From: Escherichia coli
GTDB lineage: Bacteria > Pseudomonadota > Gammaproteobacteria > Enterobacterales > Enterobacteriaceae
DNA: 64,000 nt
Assembly (NCBI RefSeq): GCF_013315695.1
Contig: NZ_CP054353.1
Reading direction: 5' to 3' (one strand)
Shown: in pieces, positions 32,518-56,698 of the stretch
Numbering within the stretch: position 1 is the first letter of the stretch
How the letters are laid out: each line of letters starts with the position of its first letter
Made by a program: the position numbers and the translations under genes
Notes under the pieces: model-generated
What the model was told of the DNA's origin: nothing
Seen by the model: only the letters and a program-made list of their open reading frames with translations
Database searches by the model: none

Positions 32518-32654
32518 CGTGTAATGGCTGCATGAAATAAACAATAAAATATAAATAACATTATCAGCCTGCTGACGGCTTGAAGAGAGTCACAGTATCT
32601 TGTGCAACATTATTGGAAAGAGTGAGGGGCGAGGTAGCGAAGCGGAAAAATGTT

Positions 32655-32760
32655 AAAAAAAAGCCCATCGTGGGAGATGGGCAAAGACTACACACAGCAA
32701 TTCGTTGTTTCACTCAGGGGATTTCCATGCTTATAAATCAATATGTTGATTTATAACCGT
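32655..32760 (-). ncRNA. rprA: RprA small regulatory RNA
   Basis: Minus-strand reading ACGGTTATAAATCAACATATTGATTTATAAGCATGGAAATCCCCTGAGTGAAACAACGAATTGCTGTGTGTAGTCTTTGCCCATCTCCCACGATGGGCTTTTTTTT matches recalled RprA, including the terminator hairpin and U-tract; located between ydiK and ydiL as in K-12. Confidence 0.85.
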
Positions 32761-37908: not shown

Positions 37909-38007
37909 CGTTGTCACCAGAAAAGTGTGACGCATATTGCTTTTGGTCATTATCTGCACAGTAAACGGTGGTATACTGTGCAGGTCTTGTCTAAAAGCGA
38001 GGATGCT

Positions 38008-38196
38008 ATGTCTACTCAACTTGATCCCACCCAGCTGGCCATTGAATTTTTACGCCGTGACCAGAGCAATCTTTCACCTGCCCAATATCTCAAACGTCTG
38101 AAACAACTAGAACTTGAATTTGCTGACCTGCTTACTCTCTCTTCTGCTGAATTAAAAGAAGAAATCTACTTTGCCTGGCGTCTGGGCGTGCATTGA
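38008..38196 (+). CDS. ydiH: Small protein YdiH
   Basis: 62 aa from MSTQLDPTQLAIEFL... Confidence 0.75.
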   Translation: MSTQLDPTQLAIEFLRRDQSNLSPAQYLKRLKQLELEFADLLTLSSAELKEEIYFAWRLGVH

Positions 38197-38419
38197 TCCT
38201 GACTTAATGCCGCAAGTTCGCCATATCGACCTGGATTAACCTCCGTCCAGGTTCGATGGACTTCTTAATACTGCTTATCTACCCGCCTGATATTGTTCAA
38301 AAATAATACTAATCGCAGTTTGTGTTAAAACGGTGGGTTAGCTTTATGAGATTATTCTTATCGCCCCTTCAAGAGCTAAGCCACTGAGAGTGCCGGAGAT
38401 AAGCGCCGGATGGGGTAGA

Positions 38420-38466
38420 AACCCTTAAGCCTGTGATGCACAGACTTAAGGGTTTTCTTATTTCTG
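38420..38466 (+). terminator. Strong intrinsic terminator in the ydiH-sufA interval
   Basis: Perfect 10-bp stem AACCCTTAAG/CTTAAGGGTT with 15-nt loop, followed by TTCTTATTTCTG. Confidence 0.6.
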
Positions 38467-38549
38467 AACGCTGCACTTTTTTACCTATCTCTTAAATAGT
38501 CATTTTCAATACAACTTTTTCTTTTTCATCACAGCCTTAATGCTCCTTA

Positions 38550-38565
38550 GATAATAATCATTATC
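38550..38565. promoter_or_regulatory. Fur box (distal) in the suf regulatory region
   Basis: GATAATAATCATTATC, near-consensus. Confidence 0.5.
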
Positions 38566-38684
38566 TAACAATGAGATACCTAATTCTTAGCGTGCCTGTT
38601 AACCCACACATCAGGGTCTATGCTTATTAAAAGCAGGAAAAAAGCATGTTTTACGGTAAAGCCCCTGCGTTTGCTGGGTTGAAC

Positions 38685-38699
38685 TGATAATCATTATCA
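38685..38699. promoter_or_regulatory. Fur box overlapping the sufA promoter
   Basis: TGATAATCATTATCA about 45-60 bp upstream of the sufA ATG. Confidence 0.55.
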
Positions 38700-38744
38700 C
38701 TAACATGCTGTTATACGCTGAAAGCGATGAAGTGAGGTAAATCG

Positions 38745-39113
38745 ATGGACATGCATTCAGGAACCTTTAATCCACAGGATTTCGCCTGGCAGGGCTTAAC
38801 GCTGACACCCGCAGCCGCTGTCCACATCCGCGAGCTGGTGGCAAAGCAGCCGGGTATGGTCGGCGTGCGCTTAGGCGTGAAGCAAACGGGCTGCGCGGGC
38901 TTTGGCTATGTGCTCGACAGTGTTAGCGAGCCGGACAAAGACGATCTGCTGTTTGAACACGACGGCGCGAAGCTGTTTGTCCCGCTGCAAGCGATGCCGT
39001 TTATTGATGGCACGGAAGTCGATTTCGTTCGTGAAGGACTTAATCAGATATTCAAATTTCACAACCCTAAAGCCCAGAATGAATGTGGCTGTGGCGAAAG
39101 CTTTGGGGTATAG
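38745..39113 (+). CDS. sufA: Fe-S cluster A-type carrier
   Basis: 122 aa; C-terminal CGCGESF motif. Confidence 0.95.
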
Positions 39114-48199: not shown

Positions 48200-48439
48200 C
48201 CATTCAGGATGAGGCGATAAGCTTCATCCTGATATTCTTGCTTCAGTTGCGGTCGAGTTAATCATTCTAAATAACAACTGCTGAAATTATACGAATTTCG
48301 ATATGTGTTTTAATTTATAACGATAATATTATTTTTGTTTTCTGCAATGACCGTCACAAATAATTGTCGCTTAAGTTAAATTTATTTCAAATGATAATAA
48401 ATATCAGTTCACTTATAATTTCTTGCTTTGTGATTTTAA

Positions 48440-48654: not shown

Positions 48655-51404
<2,750 letters not shown>

Positions 51405-56126: not shown

Positions 56127-56432
56127 TCAGGCGAGTTTTGCCTGATTGATTTGACTCAGTGGCTCATTGACATCGAAAACTTTGGCGACAACTTCCTCAA
56201 CGCCGAGATTTTTCAGTCGGGCAGTATGTTTTTCCAGATAGGCAAGGGCGCTTTTTTCATCAGTAAAAAGGTAGATCCCACCGGCTTCGTGGTTCTTTTC
56301 ACTTTCTGTCCATACCTTCCACAGAAAACCAGGTTCCTGATTAATCGACTCAGCAAGCGGTTTAAGCTGCTCAGCCATTGCGTCGCCAAATGGGCCATTG
56401 AAAGAAAAATGAAGTTGTAACAAAGTTGCCAT
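56127..56432 (-). CDS. ydhR: Putative monooxygenase-like small protein YdhR
   Basis: 101 aa. Confidence 0.85.
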
Positions 56433-56540
56433 AGCGATTCTCCTTCTGATAACGCATACGAAGACAGTGTAAATCTTTTAACGTATTGGATACAGAGAAG
56501 AAACAGAGGGAAAAAAGGAGAAGACCAGATTAAGAAAATC

Positions 56541-56617
56541 TGGTGCGTCCGAGTGGACTCGAACCACCGACCCCCACCATGTCAAGGTGGTGCTCTAACC
56601 AACTGAGCTACGGACGC
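56541..56617 (-). tRNA. valV: tRNA-Val (anticodon GAC)
   Basis: Reverse complement reads GCGTCCGTAGCTCAGTTGGTTAGAGCACCACCTTGACATGGTGGGGGTCGGTGGTTCGAGTCCACTCGGACGCACCA, a cloverleaf with CCA end. Confidence 0.9.
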
Positions 56618-56621
56618 AGGA

Positions 56622-56698
56622 TGGTGCGTTCAATTGGACTCGAACCAACGACCCCCACCATGTCAAGGTGGTGCTCTAACCAACTGAGCTATGAACGC
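56622..56698 (-). tRNA. valW: tRNA-Val (anticodon GAC)
   Basis: Reverse complement reads GCGTTCATAGCTCAGTTGGTTAGAGCACCACCTTGACATGGTGGGGGTCGTTGGTTCGAGTCCAATTGAACGCACCA. Confidence 0.9.

Follow-up and report, generated by a model that had tools for sequence, protein, structure and literature searches.

Between ydiH and sufA, Escherichia coli K-12 carries two systems that have already been described: the gene for the small RNA (sRNA) RydB, and the control region of the sufABCDSE operon. Fur binding and iron-dependent repression at suf are established in the literature, control of suf by Fur together with IscR, OxyR and IHF is widely reported (Outten 2004, Lee 2004, Lee 2008), and RydB is said to appear on Northern blots as a discrete RNA of about 60 nucleotides (nt). 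Published functional data on RydB are few. RydB has been described as Hfq-independent, its expression in Salmonella is repressed by guanosine tetraphosphate (ppGpp), and a preprint ascribes to it modest phenotypes in persister formation and under hydrogen peroxide; a RydB reporter responded only very slightly to RcsB in a 2025 study, a very small effect of FNR on such a reporter has also been described, and RydB overproduction is stated to affect rpoS. Here we analyse the same interval in a 64,000-nt stretch of E. coli DNA (contig NZ_CP054353.1, one strand; hereafter the window, to which all positions refer unless K-12 is named). We conclude, with a probability of about 0.8, that the ydiH-sufA interval consists of two known and functionally separate units, rydB and then the sufA promoter, arranged head to tail on the + strand.

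The rydB gene, its position, and the control of suf by Fur, IscR, OxyR and IHF are already knowledge of E. coli K-12; the conserved rydB promoter with its marbox-like element, the absence of the terminator from the mature RNA and the wide spread of the RydB family, all treated below, are offered as leads and not as findings. We demonstrate the identity, position, conservation and covariation of the elements of the interval, and take the 3' end of RydB from published data. A sequence-only reading of the window had described this region as two Fur boxes and a strong orphan terminator that might mark a small RNA. That reading was partly right: right in spirit, in that the hairpin does mark RydB, and wrong about the extent of the transcript as well as too generous to the more distal of the two Fur boxes.

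RydB, its terminator and the sufA promoter

The first unit comprises the RNA and the hairpin that follows it:

38363..38423, + strand: RydB small RNA, mature form about 61 nt (Rfam RF00118, alignment of K-12 b4430, Term-seq 3' end, covariation of helix P1)
38418-38456 (stem-loop), with U-rich tract to 38465, + strand: intrinsic terminator of rydB and, probably, of any ydiH read-through (fold, covariation, published survey)

The Rfam model RF00118 (rydB; gathering score 50 bits) matches the window at 38363-38423 (+) with 81.6 bits and E = 9e-18, over its full length (model positions 1-61 of 61). The noncoding RNA annotated as rydB in K-12 (b4430; 1764713-1764780, minus strand) aligns to window positions 38351-38418 (+), between ydiH and sufA, and the window sequence is identical over all of its annotated 68 nt. 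RydB, which the sequence-only reading had put in this interval with no strand given, is therefore found there and not elsewhere, on the + strand and directly 5' of the hairpin. No other RNA family was found in the interval by the Rfam scan, apart from one meaningless sub-threshold microRNA match. The RNA adopts a three-stem fold, in whose closing helix, P1, a compensatory change from CG to UA occurs in six of 27 sequences. When one genome per species was scanned with a 20-mer of the RydB core, at least 120 loci were obtained, nearly all from Enterobacterales; across 117 distinct loci P1 covaries (GCCCC/GGGGC, GCTCC/GGAGC, GTCCC/GGGAC, ATCCTT/AAGGAT), as does P2 (CACA/TGTG, CGTT/AACG, CATGA/TCATG), while P3 says nothing on covariation, the loci having been picked by P3 sequence. 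Within the species rydB is present as one chromosomal copy in 5,421 of 5,426 E. coli genomes. It is annotated in K-12 MG1655 but not in strain MS 21-1 (two genome records compared), and the automatic annotation of NCBI (PGAP) leaves it unlabelled in all 24 full-length genome rows shown, as well as in MS 21-1.

The terminator downstream of ydiH was confirmed much as it had first been read, as a perfect 10-bp stem some 225 bp past that gene: AACCCTTAAG (38420-38429) and CTTAAGGGTT (38445-38454) pair without a mismatch, the distance from the ydiH stop codon (which ends at 38196) to the hairpin is about 223 nt, and UUUUCUUAUUUCU, directly 3' of it, forms a U-rich tract. The complete fold (38418-38456) has 12 bp plus 5 inner bp and a free energy of -22 kcal/mol (z = -5.4), a stability that none of 200 shuffles reached. 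A simple terminator scan did not pick it up: with the stem interrupted by a C/A mismatch, the loop inside the outer stem probably exceeded the 8-nt limit of the scan. The hairpin is kept in 27 sequences of Escherichia, Citrobacter, Salmonella, Leclercia and Silvania; in the alignment of these five genera 98.5% of the cells of its 12 pairs are paired, four of the 12 pairs show two-sided changes, and no genus with the hairpin has lost the U tract. Elsewhere the RydB core precedes unrelated terminators, each a stem-loop with a U tract, so that "core plus terminator" is the general architecture. The term orphan does not hold for this hairpin, since it begins at the very base (38418) where annotated K-12 rydB ends. 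Because it starts where rydB ends and is conserved with compensatory changes in five genera, we conclude that it serves the rydB transcription unit as intrinsic terminator, and a published survey of repetitive extragenic palindromic (REP) sequences and terminators likewise enters rydB as "RIT", a Rho-independent terminator. A terminator for the minus strand was considered and rejected: the sequence folds on that strand as well, but only three U follow and there is no convergent gene.

A smaller structure lies closer to ydiH:

38221..38259, + strand: hairpin 25-63 nt past the ydiH stop codon, without a U tract (folding energy -17.7 kcal/mol, z = -3.65; the terminator scan flagged part of it)

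This is at best a weak or partial terminator of ydiH, and as it has no U tract the larger hairpin probably also ends transcripts that read through from ydiH. The larger hairpin would in addition keep transcription of both ydiH and rydB out of the suf control region, which forms the second unit. Alignment of the RydB-sufA spacer among Escherichia and Citrobacter species, together with consensus matching, gave the following elements (strand is stated where it applies):

38489..38520: conserved block CCTATCTCTTAAATAGTCATTTTCAATACAAC with CTAT/ATAG repeats, likely an OxyR site (conserved between Escherichia and Citrobacter while its flanks diverge)
38566..38578: IHF-like core TAACAATGAGATA, aligned with a perfect WATCAANNNNTTR in Citrobacter, two mismatches here
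38610..38632: conserved block CAGGGTCTATGCTTATTAAAAG, located between the IHF and IscR sites and with almost no change from Escherichia to Citrobacter
38658..38683: IscR type-2 site AAAGCCCCTGCGTTTGCTGGGTTGAA just upstream of the -35, 26/26 against AWARCCCYTSNGTTTGMNGKKKTKWA and conserved
38679..38706, + strand: sufA core promoter, -35 TTGAAC (38679-84) and -10 TAACAT (38701-06), read from the sequence and conserved across genera
38685..38699: proximal Fur box TGATAATCATTATCA, filling the spacer between the sufA -35 and -10, 15/15 against TGATAATNATTATCA

Transcription of sufA presumably starts near 38713. A review places the suf OxyR site far upstream and states that IHF is required for activation by OxyR; the position of the block at 38489-38520 agrees with the published far-upstream site. 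The IscR consensus AWARCCCYTSNGTTTGMNGKKKTKWA has only two matches with at most four mismatches in the whole window. When the window was scanned with the 7-1-7 Fur consensus TGATAATNATTATCA, three sites matched with two mismatches or fewer, where shuffled controls predict 0.21; the classical 19-mer Fur consensus recognizes the proximal site only. The proximal box has zero to two mismatches in all 20 of the loci that have sufA after RydB; Fe-Fur bound to this operator, which fills the -35/-10 spacer, would block RNA polymerase.

The third of the Fur-like matches lies outside the interval: TGATAATAAATATCA (14/15) at 48392-48406, in A/T-rich intergenic DNA, some 250 bp before a 208-amino-acid open reading frame (48655-49281) that is probably ydhY.

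The distal Fur-like box

The remaining match overlaps a promoter-like sequence, and the two are laid out as follows:

38552..38566: distal Fur-like box TAATAATCATTATCT, 13/15 against TGATAATNATTATCA
38528..38555, + strand: sigma-70-like ATCACA-16-GATAAT, whose -10 is the left end of the distal box (consensus scan)

Two near-consensus Fur sites had been read from the sequence, and both exist as matches: the one at 38685-38699 is the perfect proximal box TGATAATCATTATCA, and the one read as 38550-38565 (GATAATAATCATTATC) corresponds to TAATAATCATTATCT at 38552-38566. As operators they fare differently. The proximal box stands as a conserved operator; the distal one is found in Escherichia only, varies between strains and lies directly against the IHF site. 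In Citrobacter, Leclercia and other genera the corresponding position holds no match, and within Escherichia position 38558 is T here, C in K-12 and G in another strain, the T allele matching the consensus at 13 of 15 positions and the K-12 C allele at 12 of 15. The box consists of A/T-rich sequence that directly precedes the IHF core. Most likely, then, it is the A/T-rich flank of the IHF site, which in Escherichia happens to resemble a Fur box; at most it would be a weak auxiliary Fur site, a role that is unlikely.

What weighs against a chance resemblance is that the box overlaps a sigma-70-like -10 in a region where RNA polymerase bound in genomic SELEX (systematic evolution of ligands by exponential enrichment), and could therefore be functional. 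Shimada 2014 proposed the same sequence for a peak of the RpoD holoenzyme in the rydB-sufA spacer. The best-surviving alternative builds on this overlap and takes the distal box as a working second Fur operator, which would either repress the upstream sigma-70 promoter (start about 38562) or compete with IHF and, in that second mode, damp activation by OxyR when iron is plentiful. A 13/15 match where 0.21 such sites are expected in the window is in its favour, and at least 36% of E. coli genomes have the T allele, the better match (1976 of 5419 share the exact 81-nt allele of the window). It is nevertheless unlikely: genera that retain the proximal box lack the distal one, one consensus position may be T, C or G even within Escherichia, and the promoter call from SELEX is a mere consensus match near a broad peak. 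We know of no start site for ATCACA-16-GATAAT, nor of any second start site or second Fur site at suf. A literature search with the literal Fur-box sequences returned papers on expression vectors only. The strain-variable box would matter only if it alters how suf is induced from one E. coli lineage to another.

Predicted promoter, mapped 3' end and proposed processing of RydB

Two elements upstream of the RNA bear on where it begins:

38347..38355, + strand: extended -10 of rydB (TG-A-GATTAT), predicted start 38362/38363 (conservation in 71 listed loci)
38312..38331, + strand: conserved marbox-like upstream element ATCGCAGTTTGTGTTAAAAC (fixed register in listed RydB loci)

Among the loci listed, 71 distinct copies of the E. 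coli type were anchored on the first base of P1. Relative to that base T-15, G-14, G-12, A-11, A-8 and T-7 are conserved across many genera and contexts, and this extended -10 predicts a start at the first base of the fold, 38362/63, which is also where the Rfam model starts. Farther upstream, the consensus GCAnTTnTTGTTAAA occupies positions -47 to -33 and has its best forward match at that fixed register in 63 of the 71 copies; the registers of both elements are fixed whatever the neighbouring genes (63-71 loci). In the window, ATCGCAGTTTGTGTTAAAAC agrees with the loose MarA/SoxS/Rob consensus AYNGCACNNWNNRYYAAAY at 17 of 19 positions (38312-38330), and at the conserved register a marbox with at most two mismatches is present in 46 of the 71 copies, as compared with 0.9% of shuffled controls. 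The box is in forward orientation, and 18 bp separate its end at 38331 from the -10 hexamer GATTAT at 38350. In class II promoters of MarA, SoxS and Rob the box is reportedly forward, lies 18-19 bp before the -10 and overlaps the -35. Judged from sequence and register, the odds that MarA, SoxS or Rob controls rydB are about even; none of the 15 MarA/SoxS papers that a search for the marbox listed has rydB in its text, and a paper on the superoxide response (PMC2064960) does mention it.

A near-palindrome, TATGAGATTATTCTTAT (38345-38361), spans the -10 and the predicted start of rydB; in some genera it is the perfect palindrome ATGAGAATATTCTCAT, related palindromes stand just before the -10 in other RydB subtypes, and it resembles TGAGACGAATCTGA upstream of the rprA -35 (window 32809-32796, minus strand). 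Three other candidates near the core were rejected. No RcsAB box with at most two mismatches occurs in the region, even though TGAGATTATTCTTA resembles the same TGAGACGAATCTGA; in a possible sigma-54 promoter, TGGCAG-N-TTGCT, the spacing from GG to GC is, by eye, 2 nt too short; and a small open reading frame from a conserved ATGAGA upstream of the core keeps, again by eye, neither frame nor length between genera.

The 3' end of the RNA is known from Term-seq. In the curated tables of Adams et al. 2021 the sole rydB 3' end is K-12 position 1764708 (minus strand), which is window position 38423, the second C of the 5' arm of the hairpin (...GGGGUAGAAACC), and the Rfam model ends at the same nucleotide. 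The 3'-end table has three rydB rows, one per growth condition, equal to its three matches to "17647", and the two displayed rows both give 1764708, averaging 2.17 and 4.14 million reads; just two rows in the opening part of the table lie above 2.17 million (3.10 million, and 3.52 million for the tRNA aspV). An abundant 3' end inside the 5' arm means that the stable RNA, of about 61 nt, lacks the hairpin, and the simplest reading is that a primary transcript of about 100 nt loses its terminator.

We infer the following course. Transcription would start at about 38363 and stop at the hairpin and U tract, at about 38459-65, to give a primary transcript of about 97-103 nt; the terminator would then be removed, either by an endonuclease cutting in the stem or by such a cut and subsequent 3'-to-5' trimming, halted 8 nt beyond the closing helix, and an abundant, compact 61-nt RydB ending at 38423 would be left. 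RNase III would be the obvious candidate for the cut, given the long stem and a cut about 12 bp from the loop. The mapped 3' end lies 8 nt past the last G of P1, and 3' exonucleases typically stall about 8 nt from a helix. Salmonella rydB is annotated as 105 nt, which equals the distance from the start of the core to the U tract and fits an end in that tract.

Several observations weigh against parts of this account. The curated Term-seq tables, which are thresholded and may drop minor peaks, have no entry for the U tract (K-12 17646xx). The annotated K-12 5' end (38351) would suit a different -10, TAGCTT (38339-44), which is found in E. coli only, and a look-up of start sites in the Cappable-seq supplements gave no entry for the rydB-sufA region. 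The marbox consensus is loose, with 15 matches of at most two mismatches in the window. A stable 17-bp hairpin, finally, normally blocks exonucleases, so that the processing must involve an endonuclease.

RydB might instead have no gene of its own and be excised from a long ydiH 3' untranslated region, the hairpin being simply the terminator of ydiH. The two lie on the same strand, and the hairpin at 38221-59 lacks a U tract, so ydiH transcripts probably do reach the larger one. Yet the extended -10 and the upstream box accompany the core in dozens of loci where ydiH is absent and the upstream genes are unrelated, and 3'-end counts on the scale of a tRNA are hardly those of a minor mRNA fragment. 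We consider this origin improbable, and the two are in any case not exclusive, as one hairpin may end both transcripts. Slightly less probable again is that the hairpin serves mainly as a processing or stability signal, or as a protein-binding element, with the RydB 3' end cut from longer read-through transcripts. Its outer stem (CCCTTAAG/CTTAAGGG) is conserved well beyond what a terminator needs, the mature 3' end falls within the stem, and the Term-seq tables give none at the U tract; but the U tract is conserved in all genera with the hairpin, genera without it have ordinary terminators at the same place, and read-through would enter the tightly regulated suf promoter.

The transcript first envisaged, a separate small RNA of 60-70 nt starting near 38400 and ending at 38466, is very improbable: the hairpin and U tract are strong, and many enterobacterial sRNAs do end in their own terminator hairpin, but 38400 falls within the conserved core of RydB and neither a promoter-like element nor a pattern of conservation marks a start near it, both the K-12 annotation and Rfam put RydB 5' of the hairpin, the abundant mapped end is 38423 and not 38466, and from the predicted start to the U tract the distance is about 97-103 nt.

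The RydB family and comparison with known systems

Beyond the window, the RydB core recurs across Enterobacterales. The distinct loci of the scan, at least 117, fall into several sequence subtypes, all of which keep AGAGCUAA and the hairpin GCCGGAGAUAAGCGCCGG, the invariance of the latter following from the design of the search. Eleven of 12 divergent-subtype loci that were scanned reach the gathering score of RF00118, one locus from Winslowiella (L033) lying below it. Several genomes hold two or three copies (for example L020/L021, L023/L024, L027/L028, L031/L032, L066/L067 and L072/L073). A shared neighbouring gene, which would indicate regulation in cis, was sought and not found among these loci: the neighbours include LysR regulators, SufA, phosphotransferase system transporters, phosphatases, OsmC, AccB, short-chain dehydrogenase/reductase enzymes and others.

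Of the 41 listed copies that are not of the E. coli type, seven are preceded by a Fur-like box at a distance of no more than 160 nt; the downstream control gave none in 41. Near-perfect boxes (for example TGATAATGATTATTA) lie about 100 nt upstream of the searched 20-mer in these RydB paralogues (L028, L032, L067 and L024 from Rouxiella / Serratia sp., L049 and L051 from Pantoea, and L011 and L100); the Rouxiella/Serratia copies next to osmC, some of them directly upstream of it, have a 14/15 Fur box. The E. coli plasmid p5 of strain 254D-1 (L123, 1453-1530) carries a RydB-like fold that is divergent but shares the GCCGGAGATAAGCGCCGG hairpin. In E. coli phage-plasmids and in the Yersinia phages vB_YpM_39/41/44 this divergent fold stands 11 nt before the ATG of an MT-A70 methyltransferase and carries a GGAGG ribosome-binding site in its junction; it scores below the Rfam threshold, and partial matches to the core are present on 55 E. 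coli plasmids.

We tentatively suggest that RydB is not a typical base-pairing sRNA and represents, in E. coli, a widespread family of compact three-stem RNAs that occurs in Enterobacterales and some of their phages, at times in several copies. Its conserved junction nucleotides might bind a protein or small ligand; its promoters may be stress-responsive, mostly with MarA/SoxS/Rob-like boxes and in some paralogues with Fur boxes; the terminator would be removed in E. coli; and the phage fold that carries the Shine-Dalgarno sequence of the methylase hints at a riboswitch-like use in cis. Such a proposal is possible but less than probable. The abundance of RydB at the level of a tRNA, the loss of its terminator and the conserved MarA/SoxS/Rob-like box could give specialists handles for assigning it a function, as could the large, covarying, multi-copy family, its Fur-boxed paralogues and the phage leader version.

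The locus itself is typical of the species. Over 38000-38800 (801 bp, from ydiH to the start of sufA) the window shares 100% identity with E. coli strain MS 21-1, and with nearly all of the 5,421 complete E. coli genomes that match it shares 96-99%; the genes run in the order ydiJ-menI-ydiH-(rydB)-sufABCDSE, with every gene on the + strand of the window, and the K-12 numbering runs in the opposite direction. The flanking genes are:

38008..38196, + strand: ydiH coding sequence, 62 amino acids, upstream neighbour (RefSeq annotation of MS 21-1 and K-12; open reading frame list)
38745..39113, + strand: sufA, first gene of sufABCDSE (open reading frame list; annotation)

Elsewhere, the window contains the gene and terminator of the small RNA RprA (32653-32760, minus strand; Rfam, 118.5 bits) and two tandem tRNA genes on the minus strand (56544-56617 and 56625-56698). 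An Rfam match named "HPnc0260 antisense RNA" (56416-56579, +) overlaps one of these tRNA genes in antisense and is probably an artefact of a model containing tRNA-complementary sequence.

Set beside the systems already described, the RNA agrees fully with RydB of K-12 (b4430; RF00118): it has the same ydiH-sufA locus, the same strand and a full-length Rfam match, and the RNA itself shows no difference. It is from the K-12 annotation that it departs, at both ends, as the conserved promoter indicates a 5' end at 38362/63 and not at 38351, while the Term-seq 3' end lies 5 nt past the annotated one, within the terminator stem. With the intrinsic terminators of enterobacterial sRNA genes the hairpin shares a stable stem-loop and U tract with compensatory changes; most enterobacterial sRNAs, however, retain the terminator hairpin as their 3' end, where it is the Hfq-binding site, whereas the dominant RydB RNA lacks it. 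The putative rydB promoter resembles the class II promoters of MarA, SoxS and Rob (micF, inaA, fumC) in its forward 20-bp box, the correct spacing of GCA and YAAA, and the want of a good -35; it differs from the marbox consensus at position 7 (C) and position 19 (Y), and in several genera the box sits within a palindrome, TTAGCAA-N3-TTGCTAA, which a monomeric activator such as MarA, SoxS or Rob would not need. The suf control region, for its part, matches the sufABCDSE promoter of E. coli, with the same Fur box in the core promoter, the IscR site upstream of it, and the same far-upstream OxyR-like and IHF-like blocks; relative to K-12 it differs in the T at 38558, which turns the flank of the IHF site from a 12/15 into a 13/15 match to the Fur consensus.

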